Below, piece by piece: positions 27,511-45,763 of a DNA stretch of 64,000 nucleotides. Location: positions 6,442-70,441 of the IMG/VR virus record IMGVR_UViG_3300037512_001384. One strand, given 5' to 3'. This stretch comes from a virus. The notes under the pieces were generated by a model. The model ran no database searches and was not told the DNA's origin. It worked only from the letters and a program-made list of their open reading frames with translations. Made by a program: the position numbers and the translations under genes. Each line of letters starts with the position of its first letter. Within the stretch, counting starts at the first letter, position 1.

Positions 27511-27696
27511 ATCATTTGGTTTTTATTGATTACGACGAGTGAAGCCGGACAATATCCCATCGTCCGGCTCCTGATTAACCTAAATACTTATGTGGTAAAA
27601 ACGTACACACGAAAGTATGTGTAAACATGTTGACCACACTGCTACGACTATGGTAATCTTGCTGCCGGAGGACGTTTTACCGTCATCCGGCATTGT

Positions 27697-29073
27697 TTAC
27701 AGGCGCAGTGTACCCGCTCTTGCCGCCTCACAGCGTCTCAGCACCTCCTTACGGTCACGTATGAGTATCCTGGCTCTCATATCCATACCTTCGCCCGTGG
27801 GCTTATCCAGGACACCTATCGCAACCATCGTGAGGAAGTCCTCGATTGCCATACGGCGTGTAAGAAGGAAGGGGAACATACCGAAGTTACGTGGCGTCAA
27901 CTCTGTCCTGCCTTGTGACTCCTGCAGGAAGAGGCATTCGGGTTGTCCCTTGATAGTAACGGTGACACATGGCGCATCCTCCTGTCCCGGGATGTCAAGC
28001 ACGGAACCGGTAAATGTACCTCTGCAGACAAGGTTGAGCAGTATAGCATCCTCGATGTACTCCGTATCTGCATATCCGCATTGTACGCGCACGTCATCAA
28101 TGCCGTCTGAGTAGAGCATATCACCCTTACCCATCAGGTCCTCGGCACCGGTATGGTCGAGGATGACACGCGAATCAATACCCGATGCGACGCGGAACGC
28201 GATACGTACCGGGAAGTTCGCCTTGATGTTTCCTGTCACGATGGTCGCCGACGGACGTTGCGTGGCTATGATCATGTGGATACCGACGGCACGGGCTTTC
28301 TGTGCGATACGGCATATCATACGCTCCATATCCTTCCCGGCTGTCATAATAAGGTCGGCATACTCGTCTATGACCACGATGCAGTAACGCATGTAGTCTT
28401 CACCGTTGAGCTTGTCATTATACTCTTTGATGTTACGTACTCCTTTCTGCGAGAGAAGGGTGTAACGGTACTCCATGAGGTTAATGACACGCTGCAGGAT
28501 AGCGACAGCATCCTCTGTGGTCGTGGCTATGTCATCGGCGAGATACTTGTGCCAGAGAGGAGCGTAGATGTTGAGCTCAACCTGTTTGGGGTCGATGAGC
28601 ACCAACTGCATCTCTTCCGGTGTGCGCTTGCTCATCAGTGAGAGCAGCAGCATGTTCAGGCATACCGACTTACCTTGACCGGTCGCACCGGCAATAAGCA
28701 GGTGCGGCATCTGTGTGAGGTCACGGATGAAGAGTTCTCCCTGTACCGTCTTGCCTATGGCGCATGGAAGTGCCATCCTGCAGGACTCGTAATCGACATG
28801 ATGCAGAACGCTGTCCATGTGTACTATCTGACGTTGGAAGTTGGGAACCTCAATGCCAATCGTACCGCCTGCGAGCGGTCCCATGATGCGTACCGACTCC
28901 GTACCGACCGCCAAGGCAAACTCATCAGCGAGTCTGCGTACACGTGTCATATTCACACCCATATCCGGTCTGAACTCATACAGGGTGACGCTGGGTCCTT
29001 TCGTGACTCTCCAGCTCAGCGGTTCAATCTTATGAACCCTGAGCACCTGTTCTAACTTGTAAGTGTAATCCAT
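27697..29073 (-). CDS. FtsK/SpoIIIE-family DNA translocase-like ATPase
   Basis: Walker A AGATGQGKS, Walker B VVIDEYADL, ATQRPSATIVTGNIKANFP..GAEDLMGKGDML. Start set at MDYTYK by the cassette. Confidence 0.85.
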   Translation of the reverse strand: MDYTYKLEQVLRVHKIEPLSWRVTKGPSVTLYEFRPDMGVNMTRVRRLADEFALAVGTESVRIMGPLAGGTIGIEVPNFQRQIVHMDSVLHHVDYESCRMALPCAIGKTVQGELFIRDLTQMPHLLIAGATGQGKSVCLNMLLLSLMSKRTPEEMQLVLIDPKQVELNIYAPLWHKYLADDIATTTEDAVAILQRVINLMEYRYTLLSQKGVRNIKEYNDKLNGEDYMRYCIVVIDEYADLIMTAGKDMERMICRIAQKARAVGIHMIIATQRPSATIVTGNIKANFPVRIAFRVASGIDSRVILDHTGAEDLMGKGDMLYSDGIDDVRVQCGYADTEYIEDAILLNLVCRGTFTGSVLDIPGQEDAPCVTVTIKGQPECLFLQESQGRTELTPRNFGMFPFLLTRRMAIEDFLTMVAIGVLDKPTGEGMDMRARILIRDRKEVLRRCEAARAGTLRL

Positions 29074-29157
29074 AATGATTGTTTGAGTTATTATTGGCGG
29101 AGCAGCTGATGTCACTCAATCAGCTCCAGGACGTGGGATTTGTCCTTTGGAAAAGTG

Positions 29158-29245
29158 ATGCGCACCCATGTCAATGAGTACGCATCTGTTTAACTCTTTA
29201 AATACTACAACTATGCGCCTCACGGCGTTCGTATGTAATAATTAG
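29158..29245 (+). promoter_or_regulatory. solo cassette in the opposite (plus) orientation, followed by a 10-codon mini-ORF
   Basis: Hairpin ATGCGCAC..GTACGCAT, then CTGTTTAACTCTTTAAATACTACAACTATG (near-perfect consensus), then MRLTAFVCNN and a stop. Confidence 0.55.
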
Positions 29246-29320
29246 CACAAAGATAAGGATTCGCCCTTATCCTTGTATGGCGATGTTAATCCTTAACATA
29301 GTTAATGTACGGATTTAACA

Positions 29321-29593
29321 TTAGTAGTGTTGCTGAACGAGGTTGTCGATAGAATCAAGCACCTCATCCACGTCACGTATCACTCCCATCTTACCGAGAT
29401 CTTCCACGATACATTTAAGTCTGACGTAGTTCTTAACCCCCACACGTGTGGCTCCTACGCCGTTTTTTACGAATGACGGGCGTATGGAATGGAAGTGCTT
29501 ACGGAAGAACTGTTCAAGCGACATGAAGCCCACTGTCTTGCTCTTCTGTTCCCTGTTGCTGAAATACTCAGCGGCTAATTTCCTCAGTCTCAT
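29321..29593 (-). CDS. hypothetical protein
   Basis: ORF-track ORF with a weak cassette upstream. Confidence 0.5.
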   Translation of the reverse strand: MRLRKLAAEYFSNREQKSKTVGFMSLEQFFRKHFHSIRPSFVKNGVGATRVGVKNYVRLKCIVEDLGKMGVIRDVDEVLDSIDNLVQQHY

Positions 29594-29626
29594 AGTTACT
29601 TCTCAATTAGTTAAGTTACTACCCTG

Positions 29627-29779
29627 TTAATTACTGACCGCCTGCACCGTATGAGCCTTGAAGTGGAATAATGCATCTGCAGGTGTCATAGGAATCGGGG
29701 TTGAAAGTATTTCCTCCTTACCCCGGCGGTACACCCTCCATTGGGTGTACTTCTTCTGGGTTGTTTTCTCTTCTTTCAT
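29627..29779 (-). CDS. hypothetical protein (50 aa, not in ORF track)
   Basis: MKEEKTTQKKYTQWRVY..; start preceded by the cassette (hairpin TATAGCTG..CAGCTATA). Confidence 0.45.
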   Translation of the reverse strand: MKEEKTTQKKYTQWRVYRRGKEEILSTPIPMTPADALFHFKAHTVQAVSN

Positions 29780-29844
29780 TGCGAATCATTTTAGTTAGAC
29801 ATAATGGCGATTATAGCTGCGTTTCCACAGCTATAACCTTCTTG

Positions 29845-30435
29845 TTACTCGGCGATGTAATCATTCCAGAGAGCTTGTGCCATGATCTCCGCTGCAATCT
29901 CGTCCTCGGGAAGTTGGTTGAACATATCCAATGTGTTGCCATGAAGATCCTCGTCCCCGGCTTCCAAAACATCTCTAATCTCAGAGATGACATCGAGCAT
30001 ATCATCTTTGAGCTGTTGAAAATCCTCAATAGGATTACCGTCGCTGTCATAACAATGGTCGTTCGGATCATTAAGGTTAAGTAGGATGTCGCCCGTTAAG
30101 TTGATAAAGTGATATTCATGATACCCGGGTACGAACGAATACTCTGTCTTGGCGTACTGTTCGCGCAGTGATTTGAGAATGAATATCAGCTCTTCTACCG
30201 GATGCTGAATAACGTATTCGCCTTCTTCTTGGTAGTCTTCAAAGAGCAGGATGATACCGTTATCGATTGGATTTAGGTCCACACCCTGCAGCAATACCTC
30301 GCCGTCATGGTCGTCAATCATGATAGGTGTCTCGAACGTCCACGCAAATCCCATTTTCTTCATCTCCTTGCGGATGTCAGCGATTACCTGCTCTTTGAGC
30401 TCCTTTACTTTTTCGTTGTAGTTTTTTGTTTCCAT
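29845..30435 (-). CDS. hypothetical, strongly acidic protein
   Basis: Cassette-defined start. D/E-rich throughout. Confidence 0.55.
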   Translation of the reverse strand: METKNYNEKVKELKEQVIADIRKEMKKMGFAWTFETPIMIDDHDGEVLLQGVDLNPIDNGIILLFEDYQEEGEYVIQHPVEELIFILKSLREQYAKTEYSFVPGYHEYHFINLTGDILLNLNDPNDHCYDSDGNPIEDFQQLKDDMLDVISEIRDVLEAGDEDLHGNTLDMFNQLPEDEIAAEIMAQALWNDYIAE

Positions 30436-30497
30436 AATTGATGTTTTTTAGGTTAAACGTGGTTCCCTGCAAGCATTTCCGTACTTGCAGGAATAAA

Positions 30498-30977
30498 TCA
30501 CCAATGATTCGCAGTACGTATGTGTTTCATTGTGAATGTAGCGGTCTCTAATGAGCCCTTGAACTTGATGCGGGTAAAGAATGTCACACCCAATTCTCCT
30601 GTGTTGGACAGTTCAGTCTCGACCTTTGTGATTTTGGATGTGTGATTCTTTCCGTCATCAGGGCAATACCATTTGACGGTATCGTTGATGCTGTAGGGAA
30701 TGACAATCAATCCGTTCGGTTTCTCACCCAGATCCACGAAGAAATCAGTCCATCGGTCGTGGCAATTTGCGTTCTTTTCAGGAAGGTATGGCCAGGCGTG
30801 ACTTGCATTCATCTTGTCATTGGTTATAAACCCACAGTCATATTTGCCGGGAGTATAGTTCTCCTTCTGTGAGTAGGCGGGCTCAAAATCACATAGGTAA
30901 ATCCGTCCTTTGCGATAGTAACCCTTGATGTCCTGTTTGCACAAAAACATGTGCCCTTTAATAATCCTCGGTTCCAT
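30498..30977 (-). CDS. hypothetical protein
   Basis: Cassette-defined start. Confidence 0.55.
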   Translation of the reverse strand: MEPRIIKGHMFLCKQDIKGYYRKGRIYLCDFEPAYSQKENYTPGKYDCGFITNDKMNASHAWPYLPEKNANCHDRWTDFFVDLGEKPNGLIVIPYSINDTVKWYCPDDGKNHTSKITKVETELSNTGELGVTFFTRIKFKGSLETATFTMKHIRTANHW

Positions 30978-31202
30978 TGTAGTATGATTTAAGAGTTAAA
31001 CAATTGTTGCCGTCACAAAAACTTTCATATCTTTGTGACGTGGAAACTAAAACGGATGTTCAGTCCGTATGTCGGGACTTACCTAAACCCAAGACTTATA
31101 GTCAGGGTGAAGTGCCACACTCTCAGGGAAATTGTAATGCGCATAATTACAATATTTAAAGAGTTAGTTTCCGTCCTCAGCTTAGGGCGCATGAGGGGCC
31201 TA

Positions 31203-31235
31203 AATGGATGTCTCGCTGGCATCCATTCTTTTTTT
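31203..31235 (+). terminator. plus-strand rho-independent terminator inside the leftward block
   Basis: AATGGATG..CATCCATT stem followed by C and seven T on the plus strand only. Confidence 0.55.
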
Positions 31236-31665
31236 ATGACCTGATTACACGGGCGTAGGAGTGAGTCGGATAGAATATTTCCTCTGCATTCCATGCGCTC
31301 GCCAAATCGTGCAAGTCCTCGAAGCAATCCACGTAATCCGAACCGGCATCGTACATCTCCAATATCTCCTTGTCGGATATTTCATTAAACTCTTTCTCGT
31401 CAAGGATGTCAGCATTGCTATCCAAGATATAGATGCGCTCACGAGATAATGGTTCCTTCATCAGACAACAGAGTAATGCGTCATTGAGCAGATTGGGGAG
31501 TTCTTCCTCGAAATAACCATCCGCGTAATTATCGATTACCTTTCCCTTGAGATTGCAGATGTCAAGGCGGTACGTGTTGTCTTCAGCTTTGACGCTTAGC
31601 TTATAACCGCGTTCTTTTAATTGTTCGTTGGCGAACTTCAGCAGTTTCTTGTTTTCTTTTTCCAT
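31234..31665 (-). CDS. hypothetical acidic protein
   Basis: Cassette-defined start. Confidence 0.55.
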   Translation of the reverse strand: MEKENKKLLKFANEQLKERGYKLSVKAEDNTYRLDICNLKGKVIDNYADGYFEEELPNLLNDALLCCLMKEPLSRERIYILDSNADILDEKEFNEISDKEILEMYDAGSDYVDCFEDLHDLASAWNAEEIFYPTHSYARVIRS

Positions 31666-31730
31666 AATAGTGTAGTGTTAGAGTTAAACAATAGCTGATG
31701 CTGTCAGTGTCATCCGGCAGCATCGTAGAT

Positions 31731-32030
31731 TCATATCCAGCTCACGAAGTCAATCTCCGTCTCTTCAGTGATGTTGATAGGCTCTTCGGTGACAATCGTA
31801 CCGCAGAAGTTGACCATGATACCGGCACCTTCCTTCTGAACTGTTACGGGTGTACTCCAGTCCCCGTCATCATTGTGTCTGGTGTGATACATGTGTTTGC
31901 CTTCGGGGATTGAGTTCGGATCAAGGCGCATTCCGTCAAAGAACTGCACTTCCCGGTTCTTATCTTCTCCTACTACATGAATCTCCAGCTTGTCGCAGTA
32001 ATCGAGATGTTCGTTGTAATTGTAAAGCAT
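31731..32030 (-). CDS. hypothetical protein
   Basis: Cassette-defined start. Confidence 0.55.
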   Translation of the reverse strand: MLYNYNEHLDYCDKLEIHVVGEDKNREVQFFDGMRLDPNSIPEGKHMYHTRHNDDGDWSTPVTVQKEGAGIMVNFCGTIVTEEPINITEETEIDFVSWI

Positions 32031-32094
32031 AATAATATAATTTTGAGTTAAACATATTTGCTTTGGTGTCGAATATCACTCCGACACCAAACAA

Positions 32095-32706
32095 TCAGAA
32101 CGGAAGAGGAATGTCCTCGATGATTTCATTCATAACCTCTTTCTCGAACTTCTCCAACTCCTCGATGTAGTCATAGTTGCCTTCGTCTTCATCCTTGCCG
32201 CCCAACCTCTTCTCAAATTCAACAGCTTTCTTGATGAAGTAAGCGGCTTTATCTCTGGAATCCAACCAAGGGTAACTTCCGCTTTTCTCAATCTTGGCGA
32301 TGTCTTCAGCGAGGTCTGCTACCAGATGTACGGCATTCTCCATCTCCTTGTAGGTGTATGTACGCACTTCGTCTTCTCCCTTGACCTCTATCTCAGGCAG
32401 ATAATCCATGATAAAATCAATGTGCGAATAGTGTACATCACCGAGTCCAATCTCAATGTCTGACACAGAACCGTCATGCAGATTGACTGACATACGGATG
32501 TTACCTTTGGACTCCACCCATATTTTCATCACATCTACGTCGCCTACATACTCGCAATCGTCAATGCTGGCTGTTATGATGGGGTATTCTATACCGGAAT
32601 CCTTCCATGTAAAACTGCCTCCCAGCTTTTCCAGGCACTTGCGCAATTCCCTTTGTTCCTTTACGGCTATTTCAGCATACGCTTTGTAAAATGATTCATG
32701 TTTCAT
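32095..32706 (-). CDS. hypothetical acidic protein
   Basis: Cassette-defined start. Confidence 0.55.
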   Translation of the reverse strand: MKHESFYKAYAEIAVKEQRELRKCLEKLGGSFTWKDSGIEYPIITASIDDCEYVGDVDVMKIWVESKGNIRMSVNLHDGSVSDIEIGLGDVHYSHIDFIMDYLPEIEVKGEDEVRTYTYKEMENAVHLVADLAEDIAKIEKSGSYPWLDSRDKAAYFIKKAVEFEKRLGGKDEDEGNYDYIEELEKFEKEVMNEIIEDIPLPF

Positions 32707-32749
32707 AATTGTAGTTTTAAGAGTTAGTTACATGGTGGAGAGATGCATT

Positions 32750-33250
32750 TTACTGCATCATCTCCTTCGGTATCAGACAGGTTGGGTTATCATTGATGTA
32801 TCTTATGATTCGCTCTATTGTAACCCAGCCGAGGCTTGCCACTCGGTCATGCCAATCATCTGCATCATCCGGATTATCCGTGTATATTATGCCCGGATTG
32901 ACGTAGTGGTAGCACATAAGATGCTCAGAGCCGTCATTTTCTTTCCGTATGTAGATACAACGGATAGAACGGTGGGTAAATTCATCTTCGAGAAGGTCAT
33001 AAACGTTATCGTCAATGTCACTCATGGAGATTTCAGGATTGACGAGACTCTTCATCTTGATAACTTCACATCCGGCTCTCTCATTGAAGGACAATACGTG
33101 AGTTGCCTCTGCTCCGTCCAAATCCAATCCGAACTCCTTGATGTCACCGGGCGTGGGCTTATGTCCTTTCTCGCGAACATACTCCATGAGTTGTTTAACC
33201 ACCTCATCCGCAGCTCTGTTCATTGATGTCATTAAGTCACTTGCTTTCAT
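32750..33250 (-). CDS. hypothetical protein
   Basis: ORF 32750-33337 trimmed to MKASDLM by the cassette. Confidence 0.5.
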   Translation of the reverse strand: MKASDLMTSMNRAADEVVKQLMEYVREKGHKPTPGDIKEFGLDLDGAEATHVLSFNERAGCEVIKMKSLVNPEISMSDIDDNVYDLLEDEFTHRSIRCIYIRKENDGSEHLMCYHYVNPGIIYTDNPDDADDWHDRVASLGWVTIERIIRYINDNPTCLIPKEMMQ

Positions 33251-33308
33251 AATCGTATTTATTTGAGTTAAGTTGTATCCTTGCGCCCGGTTAAGAGCGC
33301 ATGGATAG

Positions 33309-33854
33309 TCAGATCTCGTAGAAGGGAATCTGGTCATCGGCTGTCATCCTTCCTGTAAGCAGTTGGAAGAAGACCGTCTCATAACGTCTATGCTCAGGAC
33401 CTTCGGAATTTCTCATACAATCGAAGTATTTCTCCATTGCGGCTCGTCTGGTCATTACCTCTGTGTCGTTGTAGCAGATGACAGTTACCTGCTCTTCGAG
33501 TTTACTTTCAGCTAAACCGCTGAGAGCAGATGCTTTTGGTTCACTGAGTTCCTTGTCAAGCGTAGCCCATACGTCTATGAGAGATTCACCGAGATAGTTT
33601 AGAAGGCTGTCGCCAATCACCCATTCGGTCTCCTTGCCGGATACTTCCGTAGATACCTCGAATCGTAGTTCTCCGTCAGAATCAGCCATAACGGAATGAC
33701 ACAATTCCTTGGCGCATACCTCACCTTCAAGGAAGAAGATTTGTACGGGCTTCTTGAACTTATGGCAAACTCCCATACCCAGGCGGTTGAGCATATCACT
33801 AATCATCTGGCGTTTGGCGGCCTCAATCATCGTTTCATAAACTTGTCTTTGCAT
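33309..33854 (-). CDS. hypothetical protein
   Basis: Cassette-defined start. Confidence 0.55.
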   Translation of the reverse strand: MQRQVYETMIEAAKRQMISDMLNRLGMGVCHKFKKPVQIFFLEGEVCAKELCHSVMADSDGELRFEVSTEVSGKETEWVIGDSLLNYLGESLIDVWATLDKELSEPKASALSGLAESKLEEQVTVICYNDTEVMTRRAAMEKYFDCMRNSEGPEHRRYETVFFQLLTGRMTADDQIPFYEI

Positions 33855-33919
33855 AATTGTAGAGTATTTGAGTTAAACAATTGGTATGTGGCAAGGAAGC
33901 TGCTCGTTGCCACACTGAC

Positions 33920-34126
33920 TTACTTGACCTCATAGTAATCGTCGGGATAACGGCTCATATAGTTGCGAATATCCTCCTCTGTCCAATCATCGGTCATACA
34001 TCCTTTACCCTGAACGTTGGTCCTATATTTGGCTATTACCTTGCCTTTCTCATATACCCTGATGGTGTAAGTCCTGTCATGGTGGTTAGCCTTGATTCTG
34101 TAATTTCTGTCTTTTCTGTTGTACAT
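33920..34126 (-). CDS. hypothetical protein
   Basis: Trimmed to MYNRKDRN by the cassette. Confidence 0.5.
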   Translation of the reverse strand: MYNRKDRNYRIKANHHDRTYTIRVYEKGKVIAKYRTNVQGKGCMTDDWTEEDIRNYMSRYPDDYYEVK

Positions 34127-34187
34127 AGTTTCGGTTTTAGTTGAACATAGTGACCATTCTATTGTTTCCAATAAAATGGTCCGGGTG

Positions 34188-34544
34188 CTAACTTACATAG
34201 TTACCGCAAGGGGTATCTGTTGTAACGTTGGCAAAACTAAGACGATAATCGGCTGGCTTGCCGTCAAAATACGTGTTGATAGTCTCAAGGATTTCTTCCT
34301 CAGAATGGTCATCCTGATATTGGCTGAAATCGCAGTAGCTGTCATCTACATAGTCTTTGTTCTCTGACATGTGGCGTACAAAATCCTCCAATTTCTCGAT
34401 GAAGAAATCGCACTCCATATTGGCCCAGTAATCCTCATTGTGGTAGATGTAACCGAAGATATGGATAAACTTTACTCCATGCTCTTCATAAATCTGGAAG
34501 AAGTCCAATTCTTCCGGTTTGGTTAATTTCTCGAATTTCTGCAT
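34188..34544 (-). CDS. hypothetical acidic protein
   Basis: Trimmed to MQKFEKL by the cassette. Confidence 0.5.
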   Translation of the reverse strand: MQKFEKLTKPEELDFFQIYEEHGVKFIHIFGYIYHNEDYWANMECDFFIEKLEDFVRHMSENKDYVDDSYCDFSQYQDDHSEEEILETINTYFDGKPADYRLSFANVTTDTPCGNYVS

Positions 34545-34603
34545 AGCTGTACGTTTTGAGTTAATGGCATCTCCTGTCGGTGTCGCCCGGCAGAAGATGA
34601 TAG

Positions 34604-34834
34604 TCACTTGATCCAATAGAAGGATGCACGTTTGCCTACGATAGCCACCGCGTCAGTTACAAGCCCTCTCGCGTTGCTGATGTCATAGACTTGTCCGAGA
34701 CGCGATTCATACCTCTCGCTCTTGTTGGCTATGAATGTCTCCCAGTACATCTTGTCGATGACCAGCAATCCAAGGTCCATCAGATCTTTTGCGCTACCCG
34801 CAAGATGCAGGTCTTTCTTTGTCAGTTTCTCCAT
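34604..34834 (-). CDS. hypothetical protein
   Basis: Cassette-defined start. Confidence 0.5.
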   Translation of the reverse strand: MEKLTKKDLHLAGSAKDLMDLGLLVIDKMYWETFIANKSERYESRLGQVYDISNARGLVTDAVAIVGKRASFYWIK

Positions 34835-34885
34835 AATCTTTTGTTTTGAGTTGGTGGACAGGCGAATGTTATTCCGCCTTATCCT

Positions 34886-35083
34886 TCAGGCGACAATCTC
34901 CAGCTCGTGAGGGAACGCCTCTAAGTCTGAATACTCGTCGGAGCACTGCACAAAATCGCCCTTGAGATTGTCAATGGTGAAGATGCGCGACAAGTCACGG
35001 TTCTCAATGTCAGGATCGTAGAATCTTACCTTAGCGCCAACAGACAATTCCTTTCCGTTGATGTCATACATTTTCTCTTCCAT
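34886..35083 (-). CDS. hypothetical protein
   Basis: Cassette-defined start. Confidence 0.5.
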   Translation of the reverse strand: MEEKMYDINGKELSVGAKVRFYDPDIENRDLSRIFTIDNLKGDFVQCSDEYSDLEAFPHELEIVA

Positions 35084-35143
35084 AATTTAGAGTTTAAGAG
35101 TTAGTAGCTCCGTAACCGTCCGTCAAGACCGCTACGGAAATAG

Positions 35144-37925: not shown

Positions 37926-37989
37926 AGTTGTAATTTTTTAGAGTTAAACATAATGGTTGCTCCCGCCTGAGTTTTCATACCCAGGCAGG
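37926..37989 (-). promoter_or_regulatory. representative cassette (hairpin + leader box)
   Basis: Minus strand: CCTGCCTGGGtatgaaaaCTCAGGCGGG, then gagcaaccattATGTTTAACTCTAAAAAATTACAACTATG. Confidence 0.6.
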
Positions 37990-38012
37990 ATGATTTGAGT
38001 TTGAACGAATGT

Positions 38013-38246
38013 TCAATAATCCACCTTAATCCCGCATCTCCTGACAACATCCTCTTGCGAACGATGAACCCAGCAGGGATATTTATCACCCTCAGTCCAC
38101 ATTATCAATTCGCCATCGTGCATAGTTCGTTTGTAATCAATATAATGAGCCCTTATAGCTTCTATATGTAACCCATTTTTTTGCAATACCTCAAGAACCT
38201 CATGCACAGAGTTCCTTCGCGTCTCGATGTAATATAGATTATTCAT
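38013..38246 (-). CDS. hypothetical protein
   Basis: Cassette-defined start. Confidence 0.5.
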   Translation of the reverse strand: MNNLYYIETRRNSVHEVLEVLQKNGLHIEAIRAHYIDYKRTMHDGELIMWTEGDKYPCWVHRSQEDVVRRCGIKVDY

Positions 38247-38297
38247 AATTATAAGTTTTGGTTTGCGGATTCGGGGATGTCGTTCCCCGGAATCCTG

Positions 38298-38759: not shown

Positions 38760-38944
38760 ATCAGATACAGTTTTCTTAATAATCCATAGACTTGCATTCT
38801 CATTAGATTTTCAAGGCGGTAACGCTCCATGTAGTTAAAGGCGTATGACTTAGCCGTCATGTAGCCGCATCGTCTGTAACGTCTGCCTATACATCTGAGG
38901 AATGCTTTGAACATCACGGGTGAACACGTTGTTTTTTCTTCCAT
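38741..38944 (-). CDS. hypothetical protein
   Basis: Cassette-defined start. Confidence 0.5.
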   Translation of the reverse strand: MEEKTTCSPVMFKAFLRCIGRRYRRCGYMTAKSYAFNYMERYRLENLMRMQVYGLLRKLYLIWKKSK

Positions 38945-39004
38945 AGTCTGTAATTTATAGTTAAACAGTTCCGCATGGAGATTTTGCTCTCCACGCAGAT
39001 AATG

Positions 39005-39997
39005 TCACGCATCGGCCCAGTAAGTCCAAGTGTGGATCTTGCTCACCCCGTAGCGGTTGAGGTAGGCGTCGAGACGTTTGCGGAACTTCTCCAGCCCGAA
39101 CTTCAGACCGTCAAGGATGAGGGCGCGTTCCTCCTTGCTCGCCTCATGGCCTTCGTTGTTGTACCACGACCTGCCGATAAGGAAATCGAGCTTGTTCTTG
39201 TAACCTGTCTCAGCGATACGCAGTGTCTCACCCTTCTCGATGCTCTCAATGGAGCGAGTGAAGGCGCTTTCGTTCTGCTGGATGAAATACTGACGGAGTT
39301 TACTCTCGTCTTTCATCAGCTCGCAATAGAACTTATAGTCCGGTCCTTCGTCATGGAAGCAGAAGCGGTTGTCTATTGACGGCTTGGTTATCAAGTAGAA
39401 ATGTCCGTCAATCTTCACCGCTCCGACACATCCCTTGCTGTAGTAGTCGCGGTCTGACTTGTCATCTTTGCACTCGGTGTCAAGAAACTCGCTGAGCCAC
39501 GTGATGAACTTCTCGTCCTTCTTGGCAGTCTTCTCGACCTTGGCGGTAATATGTGATGCTCCGCCTCCGATGAACGCCTCCACAGCCTCGCGCTTGTCGT
39601 TATTGAACAGCCAGCCCGCTCCGCAGGAGAGGAACTTGTTGAACTTCCAAGCCCCGAGTTTCTTCAGCTGCTCGCGGTAAGTGAACGTGTCACCCACAAC
39701 CGCGAAGCATTTCTCTGAATATTCTACGATTCTCAGGTCAGGCCCGTCGGTTTTCAGAGCCGCCTTGATGTCGTTGAAATCCTCCTCACCCAGCCAATCC
39801 GAACAGGAGAGGCCGTCAGGGAAATCCTCGGTGTCCTGAATCATAAACTCCGGATCGCTCTCGTTCTTGTGCAGTTCTTTGCACTTCGAGATAAACGCAT
39901 TGTAGTTCTCACAATCCGCGAGAGAAACCCATCCGCCCGCGATGCTGCCGTTGTTGTACTTACCCCAAGTACCGACATAAACTTTTGGATTACACAT
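39005..39997 (-). CDS. ArdA-like antirestriction N-terminal domain fused to a C-terminal domain of unknown function
   Basis: KVYVGTWGKYNNGSIAGGWVSL..PEFMIQDTEDFP parallels the ArdA N-terminus (VYIANLGKYNEGELVGAW..). Cassette-defined start. Confidence 0.6.
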   Translation of the reverse strand: MCNPKVYVGTWGKYNNGSIAGGWVSLADCENYNAFISKCKELHKNESDPEFMIQDTEDFPDGLSCSDWLGEEDFNDIKAALKTDGPDLRIVEYSEKCFAVVGDTFTYREQLKKLGAWKFNKFLSCGAGWLFNNDKREAVEAFIGGGASHITAKVEKTAKKDEKFITWLSEFLDTECKDDKSDRDYYSKGCVGAVKIDGHFYLITKPSIDNRFCFHDEGPDYKFYCELMKDESKLRQYFIQQNESAFTRSIESIEKGETLRIAETGYKNKLDFLIGRSWYNNEGHEASKEERALILDGLKFGLEKFRKRLDAYLNRYGVSKIHTWTYWADA

Positions 39998-40058
39998 AGT
40001 TGTAGAATTTAAGGTTAAACATAGTGGCGGTTACGGGAGATTCCGCTCTCCCATAACC
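39998..40058 (-). promoter_or_regulatory. representative cassette
   Basis: Minus strand: GGTTATGGGAGAgcggaaTCTCCCGTAACC, then gccactATGTTTAACCTTAAATTCTACAACTATG. Confidence 0.6.
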
Positions 40059-40319
40059 TTAACATTCGCCAAGCGGCTTAAGTCCGACATACTGATATTC
40101 TGCGTCGCCTGTTCCGTTTTTCTTGAAAGTCTGATAGAGTGCGCAATTGCGATTCCAATCGTGAGAATACGCCTCGCCCGGCTGGAAGATTCCTCTTTCC
40201 CAAGTTGCAGGCGGTAACGCACCGCACAGTTCCCAGAACACTTCGTTTGATATGAACTGACCGACTTTGACGTTCAGAGTCTTATCTTTCTCCCATTGCT
40301 CCATTGTGTAGATATCCAT
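40059..40319 (-). CDS. hypothetical protein
   Basis: Trimmed to MDIYTMEQ by the cassette. Confidence 0.5.
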   Translation of the reverse strand: MDIYTMEQWEKDKTLNVKVGQFISNEVFWELCGALPPATWERGIFQPGEAYSHDWNRNCALYQTFKKNGTGDAEYQYVGLKPLGEC

Positions 40320-40469
40320 AATCGTAGAATTAAGAGTTAAACAATAGCACCCCAGAGAATATTTCCTATTCCCTGAGATTTGACGTGTAAGGAAATTTCT
40401 CATACCCTCGTGAGAAAATCTACCGCTGAGAGGGAGAAAATCGTTTGTAGGGCAAAAATTGCGGGAAAT

Positions 40470-40910
40470 TCACGCTGATTCCTCCATATCCAACTCTCCG
40501 AGACAATAGAGGGCGAAGTTCTCAGCCGTATCCTTCGCCTCATCCCATCCGATAGCCTCACCGAATCCGTCCGCGTATTGGCTGACCTCCTTCGCCTCCA
40601 CTCCGAGAGTGTTCTTGTAGTCACTGACGTAGCACGAGCCGAGGCAAATCTGACCGCGCAGTTTCTTCAGTTCATTGTAGCACAGGTCATCCACGTGTCG
40701 CCACGGCTGCAAATCGGTCGGATCACAGAGGAATGTCTGTCCGTCCGAATCCACGACATAGACGTTCACTAATTTCGGGGTTTGGTCAATCTCCTTCTTG
40801 GTGGGCTGGTTCTCATTGCACAGGTCAAGAATCTCGTCAATAGTGACAACCTCCTTGAACCAAGTATGGAAAACCTTCTTCCCTGACTTTACGAATCTTG
40901 AGTATTTCAT
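40470..40910 (-). CDS. hypothetical protein
   Basis: ORF 40470-41084 trimmed to MKYSRFV by the cassette. Confidence 0.5.
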   Translation of the reverse strand: MKYSRFVKSGKKVFHTWFKEVVTIDEILDLCNENQPTKKEIDQTPKLVNVYVVDSDGQTFLCDPTDLQPWRHVDDLCYNELKKLRGQICLGSCYVSDYKNTLGVEAKEVSQYADGFGEAIGWDEAKDTAENFALYCLGELDMEESA

Positions 40911-40971
40911 AATCATAGAATTTGAGTTAAACTTGGTTTCCGGAACCGCTCTCGCACGATTCCGGAATGAT

Positions 40972-41361
40972 TCATACATACTGCTCGATGCTCTCAGCGA
41001 TAGAGCCCAGCGTCTCATAGCACAGGTAATCTCCGTCACCGAAGGCGAACCAATCGGGATCCCACGTGGAATCGTTGGCGTCAAACACCTCGCCCGGCTC
41101 GTTGAGGTTTATCTTGTCGGTGTTAGGGAGAATCTGCAGGGTGTCGTTCTTGACGCGCACCGCGATGACCTCATAGGGGAACATAATGTCCAAGCTGCCG
41201 TCAGAGCAGAACCTGTACGTCCAGATGTTGTCCGTTGCTCCGTCTTCCTTCACGTGGGTGTCTATGTATCCTTTCTCGCCCTGATGCAGACGGATGAAAT
41301 TCTTCACAACTTCCTCCAGCGCCTTGGTGCCGTGGAACATCAAATCCTTAAGTATTTCCAT
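40972..41361 (-). CDS. hypothetical acidic protein
   Basis: Cassette-defined start. Confidence 0.55.
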   Translation of the reverse strand: MEILKDLMFHGTKALEEVVKNFIRLHQGEKGYIDTHVKEDGATDNIWTYRFCSDGSLDIMFPYEVIAVRVKNDTLQILPNTDKINLNEPGEVFDANDSTWDPDWFAFGDGDYLCYETLGSIAESIEQYV

Positions 41362-41464
41362 ATCGTTTCAATTTTAGGTTAAACATAGTAGGCGCAGCCG
41401 GATTCCATCCCGCTGCACCCGAAAAACACTTAAATACACAACTAAGATTGTTGTTATCCTTTCG

Positions 41465-41785
41465 TCACGCAGGGACGGCCGGTTCGTACTCCAGCTCGCA
41501 GCTGCCGATTCCCTCGTCATAGAGTTTCAGCTCGGGAGCGCAGCACGAGATGACATCCGTTCCCTCATAGAAGAAACACGTCTTCTTGGACATCCCCACG
41601 ATGATTTTCTCACGCGCCCACTCAAGGTTGCGCTTGTTGAGGAAATCACGTTTGTATCGCTGGCAGATATAGAGAGTAAGCGCATAATAGGCGGAATATT
41701 TGCCCTCATACGTGGCCAGCTCCTCTATCTCGCCATTCTCGTGAATGACATTGATGACATTCAGGTTCTTGTTGGTCCTTCTCAT
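41465..41785 (-). CDS. hypothetical protein
   Basis: Cassette-defined start. Confidence 0.55.
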   Translation of the reverse strand: MRRTNKNLNVINVIHENGEIEELATYEGKYSAYYALTLYICQRYKRDFLNKRNLEWAREKIIVGMSKKTCFFYEGTDVISCCAPELKLYDEGIGSCELEYEPAVPA

Positions 41786-41849
41786 AATCGTAGCATTAAA
41801 GAGTTATTCGCTCCGACAGGAGTTATCTCTCCTCCTGCCGGAAATAGTG

Positions 41850-42149
41850 TCAGTTGCCGATGACGAATCCGTAGCGTTTCCACATCTCCATACCGGTTTC
41901 CTTGTATTCGGCGTCCTTGTCCCAATTCTCGGGAATCCACACGTCAATGCCGAAGTCGCTGTCCTCTATGTATTCCCTCGGAATACCCAGGTCCTGACAT
42001 AGCATCTGCACGTCAGATAATGTCGGTACGTTACAGCCTCCGTAGATGCATACTTCTCCTTCTGTTTCCCAATCCTCGGTTGAATAGCCGAAATCGTGGT
42101 TCTGGGCTATATGCTCGATACCCCAGCATAATACTTCAATTTTCTTCAT
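41850..42149 (-). CDS. hypothetical acidic protein
   Basis: Cassette-defined start. Confidence 0.55.
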   Translation of the reverse strand: MKKIEVLCWGIEHIAQNHDFGYSTEDWETEGEVCIYGGCNVPTLSDVQMLCQDLGIPREYIEDSDFGIDVWIPENWDKDAEYKETGMEMWKRYGFVIGN

Positions 42150-42204
42150 AGTTGTATAGTTTAAGAGTTGGTTGGCGCGTCAGGGAATTTCCGTATTCCC
42201 TGAC
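42150..42204 (-). promoter_or_regulatory. representative cassette
   Basis: Minus strand: GTCAGGGAAtacggaaaTTCCCTGAC, then gcgccaaccAACTCTTAAACTATACAACTATG. Confidence 0.6.
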
Positions 42205-42211
42205 ACAAAAG

Positions 42212-42874
42212 TCACGCTGCGTCCGGCTCGCATATACCACGGAACAGCGTTCCGTCCTCGCAGTAGATCTCGTCCTCGTCAATCAGCAGCTCCTCGCGGA
42301 CGTACTCGTCACTTCCTCCGGATTCCATATCATCCCGCCTTTCCTTGAAGAAACTGTCCAGGCAGTCATCCACCAAATCATACAGGGATTTGTTGTAGTC
42401 GGGTTTCCTGAACCATTCATAGACAGGATGCAGGATGAAGTTGTCACCGCAGAATCCGGTGAGCGGACAGTCGTAGTCCACGAGCAGGATCTTGGAGTTC
42501 TTGCTCTTGCCGTACACCCACTTGCCGTCCTCTCCGAGATGTCCTTTCGCGGAGATATATTTCCCTTTGAATACGTACTTGTGGATGTCACGCATAAAAC
42601 GCGCCAGATATTTTCCTGTCACGTCCTCCGCGTCTCTCTCATAGACGTCATTCTTGAAACGGAACCGGTAATCGTAGGAACAGGAATCCACCTCCCAGTG
42701 TCTCACGTCAATACCGAACAGCTCGCAGAACTCTTTCAGCGAGTCGCGGTATTCCGATTCCCAGGCGTCTATGTGTAACCGCTGTATGTCGTCACGCTCG
42801 CGGTCAATGACTTTCTTCTGAGCCTCTTCGCTCAGCTCCTCAAACTTGTAGAGCTTACATTTCACTTCTCTCAT
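42212..42874 (-). CDS. hypothetical protein
   Basis: Cassette-defined start. Confidence 0.55.
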   Translation of the reverse strand: MREVKCKLYKFEELSEEAQKKVIDRERDDIQRLHIDAWESEYRDSLKEFCELFGIDVRHWEVDSCSYDYRFRFKNDVYERDAEDVTGKYLARFMRDIHKYVFKGKYISAKGHLGEDGKWVYGKSKNSKILLVDYDCPLTGFCGDNFILHPVYEWFRKPDYNKSLYDLVDDCLDSFFKERRDDMESGGSDEYVREELLIDEDEIYCEDGTLFRGICEPDAA

Positions 42875-42896
42875 TGTCGTAGTATTTAAGTATGGT

Positions 42897-43227
42897 TTAT
42901 CGTACTCCGGTAGTCCGTCAGGACAGCCGGAATCATTTTCACGCAGCGGAGTATGATTTATCGTACTTTCCGAACTGTCCGTACATCGTCAGGTTCTTTC
43001 CCGTACTCTTGGCGGTCAGCTCATAACTCCTGTTGCGGATTCTCCTGTAGATTCTCGTCTTCATAATCGTAGTATTTTAGAGTTGGTGATAATCGTACTG
43101 CGTAGGGTTTCCGTACTCTCCGTCAGTTTTCGTACTGCGGATAATTATCGTACTATCCGCAGTTATGGCCGCGAATCGCTTTGTCTGTCATCCGCGTGAC
43201 GTATCCTCAGCCGTTGGTTTACGTACT
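42897..43227 (+). repeat. array of eight CGTACT hexamers (plus one CGTACA), all on the same strand
   Basis: Copies at 42901, 42962, 43002, 43094, 43112, 43131, 43149 and 43222. Sub-families TTATCGTACT (3 copies), TCCGTACTCT (2) and CGTACTGCG (2). Confidence 0.85.
42939..43064 (-). CDS. hypothetical basic protein (41 aa, not in ORF track)
   Basis: MKTRIYRRIRNRSYELTAK..; cassette-defined start. Confidence 0.4.
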   Translation of the reverse strand: MKTRIYRRIRNRSYELTAKSTGKNLTMYGQFGKYDKSYSAA

Positions 43228-43239
43228 GATTCCGCGTTC

Positions 43240-43380
43240 TCAGGACAGACCTTCAAGCAATCCGCAAAGGAGTATGAACAGGACACAGCCGGACATCGTG
43301 ACGATGATCCCGCCTATCGTGTAGTCCTCATCGAGCCAGTGCACTTTCTTGCACAGCAAATCCAAAATCTTCTCTTTCAT
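43240..43380 (-). CDS. small membrane protein (46 aa)
   Basis: Trimmed to MKEKILDLL by the cassette. C-terminal hydrophobic helix. Confidence 0.4.
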   Translation of the reverse strand: MKEKILDLLCKKVHWLDEDYTIGGIIVTMSGCVLFILLCGLLEGLS

Positions 43381-43411
43381 AATCGTAGTATCTATAGAGT
43401 TGTAGTTTCCG

Positions 43412-43768
43412 TCACGCATTTCCCATACGTGACAGAATGACCACGCGGTCCTGTTCCGGCAGTGTCGGGAGGATCGCGAAGAACAGCTTCTTGGCGGATG
43501 TGAAATCCACTCCGTTCTCCGCCAGAAATTCCTTTGACCATCGGTACTGCGCCATATCTTTCTTAAGGGCGCAGAAGTCAAACATAAAATCAAAGACTTT
43601 CATCGATACCTTGCGGGCCTCCGGTGTCTGCATCCATTCGGCCGATTTCAGGTATTCGGGAAAGTCACGTCCGTAAACCTTGAGGTTGCGGACGTCACGA
43701 GGGAGCTGCATCATATAATCCCAGGCACGCTGGCGCTCATACTCCCGTCTTTCCTTGTCTGCGTTCAT
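43412..43768 (-). CDS. hypothetical protein
   Basis: ATGA overlap with the upstream micro-ORF. Confidence 0.5.
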   Translation of the reverse strand: MNADKERREYERQRAWDYMMQLPRDVRNLKVYGRDFPEYLKSAEWMQTPEARKVSMKVFDFMFDFCALKKDMAQYRWSKEFLAENGVDFTSAKKLFFAILPTLPEQDRVVILSRMGNA

Positions 43769-43863
43769 AGTTCAAGAGAATCTTCTGCGCACAGACATTC
43801 GATCATCTCCTCCGCTCCCAGTCTTTCAAGCAGCTTGGAGGATAACCTGATAAATTCTTTCAT
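43765..43863 (-). CDS. hypothetical protein (32 aa, not in ORF track)
   Basis: MKEFIRLSSKLLERLGAEEMIECLCAEDSLEL. Cassette-defined start and ATGA overlap downstream. Confidence 0.35.
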   Translation of the reverse strand: MKEFIRLSSKLLERLGAEEMIECLCAEDSLEL

Positions 43864-44463
43864 AGTTGCGCGTATTTAAGGTTAAACAATATTCGTAAGC
43901 GGACCGGCAATCTTTCAGCCGTTCCGCCCTGTCCTGTGTCTTTCATCTCTCAGGCGTTTTCCAATAGATTCTAAGTTTAACCATAACTCTGAATCCCACA
44001 GCTCCGGCCTACCGGAGATTCCAGCGGAATTATTCTCAGGCGGAAAAGGGAAATAAATTCCGGTCCGCGAGGAAAGCCCAGGGATTCGCGTAACGATACG
44101 CAAATCCGCATAATCCGCTGATTAGGGATGATGTTCAACGCTGCCGTATAATCCGCGCTCCGATTACTCACTGTTTCGGCTTTCATCTTTCACTACTTGC
44201 CTATATCACTTTCAAACGGAGTGCGCCCTGATCCTGCACGCAGCGCAAAAGCACCGGTACAGGACCGCACGGGAACAGCGCCCGCTATCCGCCAGCTCTT
44301 TGCAGAACAGCCGGAAATATTCGCGTCCAATATGTCAATGTACGTTTTATTAACTTGCACCCTTCACGGAATCCAACCGCGCCCAGATAAGCAGCTCACC
44401 TGGGTTGCAAAAAGGGTATGATCCAAGCGCCCACCTGATAGGCAAATCCTTTCAGATAGGCAC

Positions 44464-44500
44464 AAAAAAGATAGGCGGCGGAAAGTATCCGCCACCTATC
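44464..44500 (-). terminator. rho-independent terminator (minus strand)
   Basis: Minus strand: GATAGGTGGCGG..CCGCCGCCTATC followed by TTTTTT. Confidence 0.75.
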
Positions 44501-44515
44501 AAACAGGGTTAAAAT

Positions 44516-45100
44516 TTAATCAACTTTGCAAACTCTTGTAAAACCAAATTTTGCCAACAGTTCAGGAGTTAAAAGACTTGCGTCTATTCCAAGACTTGCG
44601 GCCAGACTTGCGGACGCTCTTTGCAATTGCTTTTCATTTGCCTGCTTGCGTGCAGTCCGTGCAACTTCATCCCTGAATATATCGTAACTATTAAAACAAG
44701 TACGGAGGCCAGCGGCCGAAATTGTAGTTTTACGGTATGGAGTTAAACCGCTTTCCGTATTTCCTATTGTGTTTGTATCCGCTTCACTTTGAAAAGTGAT
44801 TGTAAAGTTGTTTGTTGCTTTCCTCACTTTTGCAAACACCCTCAAAAACAGATATTTTTCTGTTGCCATAAAAGGAGCGGAACGGAAAGAATCCGCAAAA
44901 CAAGCGGATAATTTATTAAGGTTTTCGGCCTCAATACTTGCGTTTTCGTTGTCAATACTTGCAAGTAGTTTGCTAATTGTGGTTTTACTTGCGTTTGCTT
45001 TTCTCAATTCCTTAACTGAAATACTTGTTACCAGTGTTTCAAGTTCAACGGTTGAAATACCTGAATAAAGGTAATCAACAAGATTTTTGTTTACTTGCAT
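44516..45100 (-). CDS. hypothetical protein (first gene of the leftward block)
   Basis: Cassette-defined start. Has its own terminator. Confidence 0.55.
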   Translation of the reverse strand: MQVNKNLVDYLYSGISTVELETLVTSISVKELRKANASKTTISKLLASIDNENASIEAENLNKLSACFADSFRSAPFMATEKYLFLRVFAKVRKATNNFTITFQSEADTNTIGNTESGLTPYRKTTISAAGLRTCFNSYDIFRDEVARTARKQANEKQLQRASASLAASLGIDASLLTPELLAKFGFTRVCKVD

Positions 45101-45763
45101 AGTTGTAATATTTAAGAGTTAATAAAATAGTGTCAAAGTGCGCATATCGGAAACACCTTTCCGACACTATAAAATTACAAAAATAATCCGATATAATGCC
45201 AATATTTGTATATTTAACTTATGTTTAATTGATTGATATATAGTAAGTTATAAAGAAAGATTATACAATATTGTAGTATATATACAGGTTATTATTGTAT
45301 ATATACATAGATAGTTAATTATATAATAACTTAAATATATAGATATTTAACGGAAAAATACTTACAAATTGATCCCAGAGTTTCGGCAATAGGTGCAAAC
45401 CGATGAACACACAACCAACACGGCAATAAAGCGGAAAAGTTGCAAGGAGCGACAAACCCCACAACGGACCGACAACGCGACCGCGAGCGGATACAATACA
45501 ATTATAATGTATTTGTTTTGCAGGAAAAACCGCGCGAATACCCCACCCAGAGAAGGCTACCCCCGACCCCCTAAATACGTTTGTATTGCGTGGGGGTCAG
45601 CCCCCGCCGAGATTTTCAATTTTTCATTTTTCGTTTTTACTTTTCGTATGCGGAACATGTTTCTGTGTATCTCAATCGGTGTTTCTGGTCTATATATATC
45701 AGTCCTGATGCCGTGTATCCTTGTCTGCGCGTTGATTATGGTCTGATACATGGGTATCTATGG

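Follow-up and report, generated by a model that had tools for sequence, protein, structure and literature searches.

A 64,000-nucleotide (nt) stretch of viral DNA (IMG/VR record IMGVR_UViG_3300037512_001384, positions 6,442 to 70,441; hereafter the window, whose own numbering is used throughout) carries on its minus strand a ~17-kb array of accessory genes, nearly every one of which is headed by the same ~60-nt cassette, comprising a hairpin, a conserved box, and a leader that runs to the ATG. We tentatively favor the explanation, at slightly less than even confidence, that the cassette acts at the RNA level as an intercistronic expression adaptor, joining a stabilizing or insulating stem-loop to a translation start region that has no Shine-Dalgarno (SD) sequence. 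The observations from which we argue are the anatomy of the cassette, the absence of promoter and terminator motifs from it, a canonical promoter upstream of its first copy, the base composition of the start sites, and swaps between related phages that are precise to the open reading frame (ORF). Searches of the literature turned up no account of cassettes like these in phages of the Bacteroidota.

Structure of the cassette and its start region

An earlier, sequence-only reading of the window had proposed about 30 copies of a hairpin-plus-leader cassette on the minus strand. Examination of the 90 nt extracted upstream of all 32 minus-strand starts that it listed showed the cassette to be real: the three-part unit stands at nearly all of them, and at 27 of the 32 a single strong hairpin (folding energy of -12 kcal/mol or lower) ends 17 to 36 nt before the ATG. 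The mean folding energy of the 60 nt upstream of the box is -18.8 kcal/mol, whereas 413 coding windows from this block average -11.5 kcal/mol (Mann-Whitney p = 4e-14) and the sequence upstream of plus-strand genes averages -11.9 kcal/mol. Stems are near-perfect and 10 to 16 bp long, and the loops, mostly 4 to 9 nt, vary in sequence. A stop codon is usually followed by ~5 nt (the median distance from stop to hairpin), a ~30-nt hairpin, and ~28 nt leading to the next ATG, the modal intergenic length being 58 to 66 nt. Array genes lacking a cassette overlap or abut the upstream ORF and are therefore taken to be translationally coupled to it.

The hairpins do not have the form of intrinsic terminators, in which a GC-rich hairpin is directly followed by a U-tract. 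The claim that they lack such a tract was borne out, the longest T-run after any of them being 3 or fewer; canonical hairpin-plus-T-tract terminators are used elsewhere at operon ends, for example, at 44500-44470 and 19471. Loops had been described as purine rich, several with GGAA; they are 72% purine against a background of 55%, the GGAA loops are real, and 14 of the 16 hexaloops conform to the pattern R-Y-R-R-N-A (p = 2e-14). Relatives of the phage add GNRA tetraloops, and the GNRA-type loop pattern is present on the sense strand only.

The 10-mer TGTTTAACTC, allowing at most one mismatch, occurs 11 times where 3.55 occurrences are expected, a count reached in none of 100 shuffles, and a box-plus-leader profile found 27 minus-strand copies between 30.4 and 45.1 kb and just 2 elsewhere. 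The box had been presented as one unit. Its constant elements, AAC(T/C)C..(T)TAAA and the ATG-anchored TAC(A/G)A(C/T)T, held up on alignment, but the upstream half, (A/T)TGTTTAAC, is optional, being missing in ~10 copies, and its distance from the ATG shifts by 1 to 3 nt. A reading of the box as a mini-ORF (ATG/TTG-TTT-AAC...) was ruled out, as frames and stops are inconsistent between copies.

Translation start in the Bacteroidetes has been found experimentally to be SD free and to depend on A at -3, -6, -12, and -13 (Baez 2019, PMC6847099). The cassette leader has this character: A is present at -3 in 91%, at -6 in 66%, and at -11 to -13 in 83 to 89% of ATG-aligned copies, T is present at -1 in 93%, no SD sequence is found, and G makes up 4% or less from -21 to -7 (10% at most to -5). 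Its predicted pairing probability is 0.31 to 0.36, compared with 0.8 for the hairpin arms. What sets the phage copies apart from the general Bacteroidetes start region is the extra upstream box and a far greater uniformity, most evident at -3 and -1. The context TACGAYTATG also precedes structural genes that have neither hairpin nor box, which argues that it is a translation context. A further likeness is to the leader of T7 gene 10 (a 5' stem-loop, the "epsilon" enhancer UUAACUUUA, and an SD sequence; T7 sequence verified), a translational enhancer (PMC8748333) in which a hairpin is likewise followed by TTTGTTTAACTTTAAG and then ATG, and whose U/A-rich TTGTTTAACT..TTAA element, ~20 nt before the ATG, has 10 consecutive bases identical to the box consensus. 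That leader differs in being a single copy with an SD sequence, in an Escherichia coli host, and in having a hairpin with which a transcript of T7 RNA polymerase begins; the 10-base identity may reflect chance or convergence on S1-type binding.

Sites of the sigma-70 type number 32 in the window, about what chance predicts (30.9). The -7 element of the Bacteroidota has been refined to TAHHTTTG, with transcription starting 4 to 5 nt downstream (PMC6847099); the window has 13 such elements where 17.9 would be expected, none of them in an internal cassette, and two related loci, L229 and L230, show none over 8 kb of their arrays. The element of sigma-ABfr promoters does occur on the minus strand at 29255-29248 and upstream of the first cassette, where the canonical element TATTTTTG (45178..45185) lies 7 nt upstream of the first hairpin. 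This first cassette of the array (45098..45170, minus strand) consists of the hairpin at 45170-45127, the box TTATTAACTCTTAAAT, and the leader to ATG 45100 of gene 1, which encodes 194 amino acids (aa). The same succession of canonical -7 box, hairpin(s), box, leader, and ATG heads the arrays of at least six relatives, L171, L178, L179, L180, L181, and L231, and the promoter region of the window is common to L229. Because the canonical -7 box is upstream of the first cassette, the hairpin, box, and leader there lie inside the 5' untranslated region (UTR), and a hairpin in that position cannot terminate an upstream gene.

The box was said to be only loosely similar to TAnnTTTG, and this proved correct, with the -7 element missing from all internal cassettes. 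The segment TATGTTTA fits 7 of its 8 positions and is absent from a third of the copies, and its G at -9 and its A at -5 are bases that real -7 elements almost never show. Assignment of the box as a -35 element of the extracytoplasmic function (ECF) type, or as a -33 element, was rejected by inspection, the geometry placing the transcription start inside the ORF. About 21 kb of host sequence flanking related prophages held no box copies, a sample too small to argue against a host signal. Judged by these motifs, identification of the box as a host promoter does not appear to be supported, and the interpretation as a whole stands as partly supported.

Under the explanation that we favor, the ~60-nt adaptor would act within the leftward mRNA of the array. 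Its first part, beginning ~5 nt beyond the stop codon of the ORF before it, would be an RNA stem-loop (10 to 16 bp) that lacks a U-tract and whose loop is of the GNRA type or fits R-Y-R-R-N-A; its second, a G-free, unstructured, A/U-rich leader of ~25 nt (box plus TAC(A/G)AYT), would give the next ORF an SD-independent start of the Bacteroidetes type. Host RNA polymerase would initiate at ordinary TAnnTTTG promoters at the array head and not at each cassette, and the hairpins, being nonterminating, would protect or insulate the mRNA, as a 3' barrier for the upstream cistron and a 5' stem-loop for the downstream one, while keeping the start region from pairing with coding sequence. That transcription does not initiate at the box, and that the hairpin stabilizes or insulates, we infer. 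Of the possibilities raised by the sequence-only reading, RNA processing or stability sites fit best, once an SD-free start region is added to them. Intercistronic hairpins of this sort include the T7 early RNase III sites, the T4 intercistronic CUUCGG and GNRA hairpins, and repetitive extragenic palindromic (REP) elements. The cassettes resemble them as stable stem-loops with tetraloop-type loops and no U-tract between the cistrons of a long operon, and differ in their 10- to 16-bp stems (short for RNase III), their fixed distance to a conserved start region, and their ~30 copies. The 3' half of the cassette hardly varies among the copies or between related phages, and on this account it would also serve as a recombination site at which whole ORFs are exchanged.

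Exchange of whole ORFs among related phages

Related loci, to which the L-numbers refer, were anchored on homologues of the portal, D5 primase, ArdA, and gene 1 in IMG/VR, metagenomes, and Logan assemblies. A scan of these relatives, as the sequence-only reading had proposed, found the cassette in every array-bearing lineage and on the coding strand only. Loops are lineage specific, those of L171 being GCAA closed by GA/TC, and in many relatives (L176-L182, L165) the hairpin has the base 5'-ACTYTY...RRAGT-3' followed by ACGAT(A/T)A. A strong bias toward the sense strand is seen for GTACGA (27 versus 4 in L182, 20 versus 2 in L178, and 14 versus 0 in L171); TACGAT also ends the cassette leader, and GTACGA-type motifs occur in the window at 42904-42933 and 43062-43153. 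The nearest cultured relative, the only distantly related Bacteroides phage LoVEphage (L185), contains a few partial box/leader copies, at 10832-10858, 11150-11217, and 12630-12671, one of them with a hairpin (ATTATTCACCCTTTAAATTTTGTATTATG), and the signal is therefore older than the window's phage family. Other routes to relatives gave little. Megablast of the block against cultured phages returned no match, the FtsK-like gene used as an anchor in viral contigs found nothing, and a profile trained on the window had few matches at portal-anchored loci, because the flanks there hold structural genes. Exact box matches in IMG/VR amounted to 112 single-copy hits with no multicopy contig and were set aside as chance matches.

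Array content is almost unique to each lineage, and a relative whose D5 primase is 86% identical shares only two array genes with the window. Homology between L171 and the window takes three forms, the cassette alone (A1), the cassette with upstream DNA ending at the ATG (A2), and the gene alone from its ATG (A3). The clearest comparison is with L229, whose array is 97 to 98% identical to that of the window except that three whole ORFs differ: the window's 86-aa gene at 40319-40059 gives way in L229 to a 162-aa gene, the 67-aa ORF at 38944 is missing, and a 115-aa gene takes the place of the 77-aa gene at 38246. Junction alignments place the breakpoints at an ATG (40317, 38940, and 38240) or at a stop codon/hairpin base (40062 and 37990). 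The comparison of gene content between cassettes that the sequence-only reading had suggested thus yields whole-ORF differences with breakpoints at cassettes. One cassette of L212 combines parts of two cassettes that lie, in L178, on either side of a ~835-nt module; this chimera has its crossover point between the hairpin and the box. The statement that structure is kept and sequence is not was likewise confirmed against L229: hairpins diverge more than box and leader and retain their pairing, with one compensatory A-T to G-C change, and the loop changes (GCGGAA to ATGAAA and ATGAAA to GTGAAA) stay within R-Y-R-R-N-A.

The case for shuffling rests on these explicit junction alignments and not on enrichment of the ends of high-scoring segment pairs (HSPs). 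At cassettes of the window alone, 7 of 26 HSP ends were found, with 14.5% expected (p = 0.07), and across 20 arrays the count was 170 of 1,263, with 7.4% expected, in a comparison whose HSPs are nonindependent and whose intergenic DNA diverges faster in any case. Gene shuffling at the cassettes is directly supported.

The nearest described system is the promoter early stem-loop (PeSL) of T4-type phages, in which a stem-loop is followed by expression signals and then the ATG (Comeau 2014, PMC4122927). As in PeSLs (Arbiol 2010, PMC2839356; Comeau 2014, PMC4122927), the stem-loop immediately precedes the expression signals and ATG, and the unit is repeated between small ORFans of a hyperplastic region and bounds indels and replacements between close relatives, as seen here in the lineage-unique array content, the ORF-precise swaps in L229, and the L212/L178 chimera. 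The cassette differs in having no -35/-10 or -33/-7 promoter and no SD sequence, in leaving only ~28 nt between hairpin and ATG, and in measuring ~60 nt in all, the promoter-containing PeSL being longer; its conserved part is a translation start region and not a promoter. It also differs in its setting, a temperate phage of a Bacteroidales host with an SPP1-type portal and an integrase/lysogeny module, in contrast to a T4-like myovirus. The analogy drawn by the sequence-only reading therefore survives for the order of parts, the ORFan-rich hyperplastic block, and the cassette-bounded replacements and indels, but not for the assignment of a promoter. The phenomenon is that of PeSLs, but the phage group is another one, and so is the conserved element that underlies it.

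Alternative explanations and the head of the array

Difficulties for an adaptor acting in a long mRNA arise at the head of the array. Gene 1 (44516-45100, minus strand) has 17 homologues (clusters) at 45 to 98% identity and always stands behind a host-type promoter. Directly after it in the window is a canonical intrinsic terminator (44470..44500, minus strand), with a 13-bp stem followed by TTTTTTG; canonical terminators also follow gene 1 in L229 and L231, and L230 has a hairpin without a T-tract at this position. The 570 nt on the minus strand between this terminator and cassette 2 (43900-44470) are poor in ORFs, with only a 69-aa ATG ORF and no gene called on an identical contig, and are predicted to be unusually structured (z = -3.5); they contain no canonical promoter and no Rfam match and show no conservation in relatives. 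A strong terminator with no recognizable promoter between it and cassette 2 means that either antitermination, possibly by gene 1, or an unrecognized promoter is needed, and the box itself could be that promoter. Gene 1 is a candidate regulator of the array. Its sequence has no similarity to any known protein, sigma factors and activators included, and its AlphaFold model is confident (pLDDT 84) yet has no structural relatives.

Four further observations weigh against the explanation that we prefer. A perfect copy of box, leader, and ATG on the opposite strand (29186-29215) heads an ORF of only 10 codons. The upstream half of the box contains ATG or TTG in the true-start context A(T/C)TATG in 6 of the 32 copies here and in most copies of L171 and L231, which is odd for an optimized start region because AUG is depleted there in the Bacteroidetes (PMC6847099). 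The box takes lineage-specific forms (TTTAAC, TTTCAC, ATTCAC, and TAACC), as if it were coevolving with a phage factor. Lastly, sense hairpins are more stable than antisense ones by -1.9 kcal/mol, against -1.1 kcal/mol for a coding control, a nonsignificant difference (p = 0.059).

Much of this would be accommodated if the cassettes were PeSL-type terminator-promoter units, the hairpin ending the upstream transcript and the box serving as a compact noncanonical promoter that the host RNA polymerase would read once a phage factor, for example, the gene 1 product, had redirected it, so that each gene formed its own unit with a ~15-nt leader. The part order is that of PeSLs, the box resembles TAnnTTTG at all but one position, and the unit of host promoter, gene 1, and strong terminator, with no further promoter visible behind it, looks like an immediate-early gate. 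Variation of the box by lineage and its occurrence without a hairpin at 7139 and 47784 also speak for a promoter, by which the opposite-strand copy is easier to explain, and an in-box ATG would stay untranscribed from one. We nevertheless regard this possibility as doubtful, though serious. Some 10 of the 32 copies lack TGTTT, and the invariant part of the sequence is nearer the ATG; the bases at -9 and -5 are wrong for a -7 element; a GC-rich hairpin fills -18 to -45, a region that is AT rich in Bacteroidetes promoters; the hairpins have no U-tract; the first cassettes carry a full box despite the canonical promoter upstream; gene 1 resembles neither sigma factors nor activators; and the G-free stretch reaches -21, past the predicted start point.

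It is improbable, in our judgment, that the hairpins are instead reiterated binding sites for a phage RNA-binding regulator, whether an antiterminator like lambda N on boxB, reloaded along the operon, or a translational repressor or endoribonuclease like RegA or RegB acting on all array mRNAs. Such a protein would account for the conservation of loops within lineages where stems are not conserved (the R-Y-R-R-N-A hexaloops here, GCAA closed by GA/TC in L171), for mutated loops that stay within the pattern, and for the hairpin base ACTYTY...RRAGT followed by ACGAT in many relatives, and the layout of promoter, hairpin, gene 1, and terminator recalls the pL-nutL-N-tL1 arrangement of lambda. GNRA-type loops are thermodynamically preferred in any case, however, and can be explained without a protein; the analysis brought up no candidate RNA-binding protein, and gene 1 has no known fold and no detectable similarity to known proteins; and nut sites occur once per operon and not 30 times, although the loops here are GNRA-like.

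Two explanations place the hairpin in DNA. That the cassettes are attC-like sites for site-specific recombination, through which a small tyrosine recombinase encoded at the array's end (26668-27510, 280 aa) would capture promoterless ORFs, is very unlikely. The array does resemble an integron in its co-oriented, promoterless ORFans, its single promoter at the head, its structured separators conserved in structure more than in sequence, and its ORF-precise exchange of one gene at a time, and the box GTTTAAC fits RYYYAAC. Against this, no complementary R''/R' pair surrounds the hairpin, the stems are near-perfect with no extrahelical bases, and the recombinase is not of the IntI type, scoring 24 to 38 bits against models for XerA/integron integrase (NF040815), XerD, and XerC with cutoffs of 220 to 335 bits; it adjoins an FtsK-like gene, as in dimer-resolution modules, and the crossovers map to the shared box and leader, as homologous recombination predicts. 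Scarcely credible is a promoter of the type used by the N4 virion RNA polymerase, in which the extruded hairpin is itself the signal, an option named by the sequence-only reading; the purine-rich loops and the position upstream of early-type genes speak for it. N4 promoters have 5- to 7-bp stems and 3-nt loops with fixed bases, rules that the longer stems, larger loops, and variable sequence of the cassettes do not follow. No giant RNA polymerase gene was seen in the ~83 of 107 kb examined, the 2,422-aa ORF occupies the tape-measure position, and the phage is temperate.

Individual cassettes, genomic setting, and significance

Independent gene calls on an identical contig match most of the cassette-defined starts. 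Among the starts in the original list, 37097 fell away, being a TTG inside the box of a gene whose real start is ATG 37073; 29593 kept its box but has no convincing hairpin; and 31144, 43064, and 29073 are cassettes, although not of regular form. On the minus strand, leftward from the gene 1 terminator, the cassettes occupy 43861..43928 (ATG 43863, 32-aa ORF), 43378..43444 (ATG 43380, 46-aa ORF, loop GGGAA), 43062..43153 (ATG 43064; atypical, with GTACGA repeats and a weak hairpin farther from the ATG), 42872..42933 (ATG 42874, 220 aa, hairpin followed by AGTACGA), 42147..42206 (ATG 42149, loop ACGGAA), 41783..41842 (ATG 41785), 41359..41420 (ATG 41361), and 40908..40966 (ATG 40910, loop GCGAGA). 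The gene at 41785 is common to L171, the preceding cassettes being unrelated. Homology to both L229 and L171 stops exactly at the ATG of the cassette at 40317..40379 (ATG 40319), the ORF behind it having been replaced, and homology to L229 restarts at the stop codon/hairpin base of the cassette at 39995..40071 (ATG 39997, loop GCGGAA), which heads an ArdA-like antirestriction gene. The next cassette (38942..39006, ATG 38944) precedes the 67-aa ORF missing from L229, and that at 38244..38295 (ATG 38246), with a degenerate box, precedes the other replaced ORF, with L229 homology restarting at the 5' base of the hairpin at 37923..37990 (ATG 37925, loop ATGAAA).

Farther left are the cassettes at 37071..37132 (ATG 37073, loop ATGACA) and 36536..36592 (ATG 36538), the latter before a gene of 58 aa whose short start is supported by an L182 homologue that is also 58 aa. 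These are followed by 36037..36106 (ATG 36039), 35081..35138 (ATG 35083), 34832..34904 (ATG 34834), 34542..34599 (ATG 34544, loop GCGACA), 34124..34188 (ATG 34126, GAAA tetraloop, hairpin overlapping the box), 33852..33915 (ATG 33854), 33248..33307 (ATG 33250), 32704..32765 (ATG 32706, loop GTAAAA), 32028..32089 (ATG 32030, LPD28-domain gene, loop GTGATA), and 31663..31724 (ATG 31665, loop ATGACA). An atypical cassette at 31142..31228 (ATG 31144) leads an ORF of only 21 codons and has a weaker hairpin that ends 57 nt upstream of the ATG. The series closes with 30975..31040 (ATG 30977, loop ATGAAA), 30433..30503 (ATG 30435, loop CGGAAA), 29777..29838 (ATG 29779, GAAA tetraloop), the weak box-only copy at 29591..29630 (ATG 29593), and a degenerate cassette with a degenerate box at 29071..29158 (ATG 29073), before the FtsK-like gene.

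Upstream of the FtsK-like/Xer-like gene pair, a hairpin at 29246..29277 (minus strand) bears the canonical -7 box TATCTTTG (29255-29248) on its 3' arm. It is the sole true composite of hairpin and host promoter in the block and is, from its motif, probably a separate host-type promoter for this pair. The opposite-strand copy at 29186..29215 (plus strand; region to 29277) runs antisense to the FtsK-like gene's long 5' UTR, encodes MRLTAFVCNN*, and has a hairpin behind it; it may represent a mini-gene, an antisense promoter, or what is left of an inverted cassette. The boxes reported on the plus strand at 7139 and 47784 exist, each with leader and ATG, before a DUF4494 gene (7114..7141) and a Band_7 gene (47755..47786), but neither has a hairpin. 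A cassette-like hairpin with the leader TAACCTAAAAG does stand on the plus strand at 20152..20214, in the replication region, before an HNH/NUMOD homing-endonuclease gene (start 20212; region to 20736) that looks as if it had been imported together with its adaptor.

From identical contigs, the window belongs to a temperate phage genome of 107,074 bp. It encodes a large terminase with an intein, an SPP1-type portal, and a major capsid protein, together with a primase-helicase, a D5-type primase, RecT, DNA methylases, two FtsK-like proteins, and the small tyrosine recombinase; a lysis module, a 378-aa integrase, an HTH_17 gene, and RusA lie to its left, and tail genes lie to its right. The array itself contains the ArdA antirestriction gene, LPD-domain genes, and ORFans. 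Every match of the portal among cultured phages (tblastn) is to a Bacteroidota phage, the top one being Bacteroides LoVEphage at 41%, and integrases 67 to 71% identical adjoin tRNA-Lys in metagenome-assembled genomes of rumen Bacteroidales and Prevotellaceae. Most phage genes are preceded by no SD sequence; the one clear exception is the major capsid gene (59830-59852, plus strand), with AAAGGAG 8 nt before the ATG. The portal matches, integrase neighbors, SD-free starts, and lysogeny module together indicate, on genomic evidence, that the host is a Bacteroidales bacterium of the rumen and the phage temperate-like. Neither an RNA polymerase gene nor a sigma gene turned up in the ~83 of 107 kb examined, which, with the lysogeny module, leads us to expect use of the host polymerase.

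Several other features of the window were recorded. The large terminase gene (55360-58152, minus strand, 930 aa) includes Hint and homing-endonuclease domains, constituting an intein in TerL. One FtsK/SpoIIIE-type ATPase (571-2658, plus strand) carries a fused PD-(D/E)XK nuclease domain; the other (27697-29073, minus strand) adjoins the 280-aa Xer-like recombinase in what looks like a dimer-resolution module. A lone tRNA-Gln gene (TTG anticodon) at 9293-9364 (plus strand), in the replication region, was the only match in an Rfam scan of the window, the cassettes belonging to no curated RNA family. In the AT-rich 900 nt that separate the array from the D5-type primase gene, iteron-like direct repeats at 45860-45990 (TTGGTACAT / TTGGTTCAT and tttttggtaatctctattttggtacat), which recur in L171, are probably a replication origin.

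A broader picture, speculative and as a whole rather unlikely, is of an integron-like "plug-and-play" platform in which the 60-nt RNA adaptor would make captured ORFs expressible and its conserved half would serve as the crossover point for a trade, one ORF at a time, in antidefense and accessory genes among rumen and gut Bacteroidales phages, with the array gated by gene 1 and its terminator and the lineage-specific loops (R-Y-R-R-N-A, GCAA) recognized by a phage factor. If the cassettes are indeed RNA-level expression adaptors, their 30 or more natural copies per genome, in many lineages, would provide the consensus of a strong SD-free 5' UTR module for the Bacteroidales, usable for expression design in Bacteroides and Prevotella, and a natural test of the -3/-6/-12/-13 adenine rules. 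Among many tiny ORFs, the cassettes would set gene starts better than ORF tracks do. They would represent a clear non-T4-like example of ORF-precise modular exchange at repeated regulatory cassettes, in an array whose ArdA and polyvalent-protein (LPD) domains would bear on the movement of antidefense genes among gut and rumen phages, and the gate of host promoter, gene 1, terminator, and promoterless array would point to an uncharacterized antitermination or promoter-switch mechanism in phages of the Bacteroidota.

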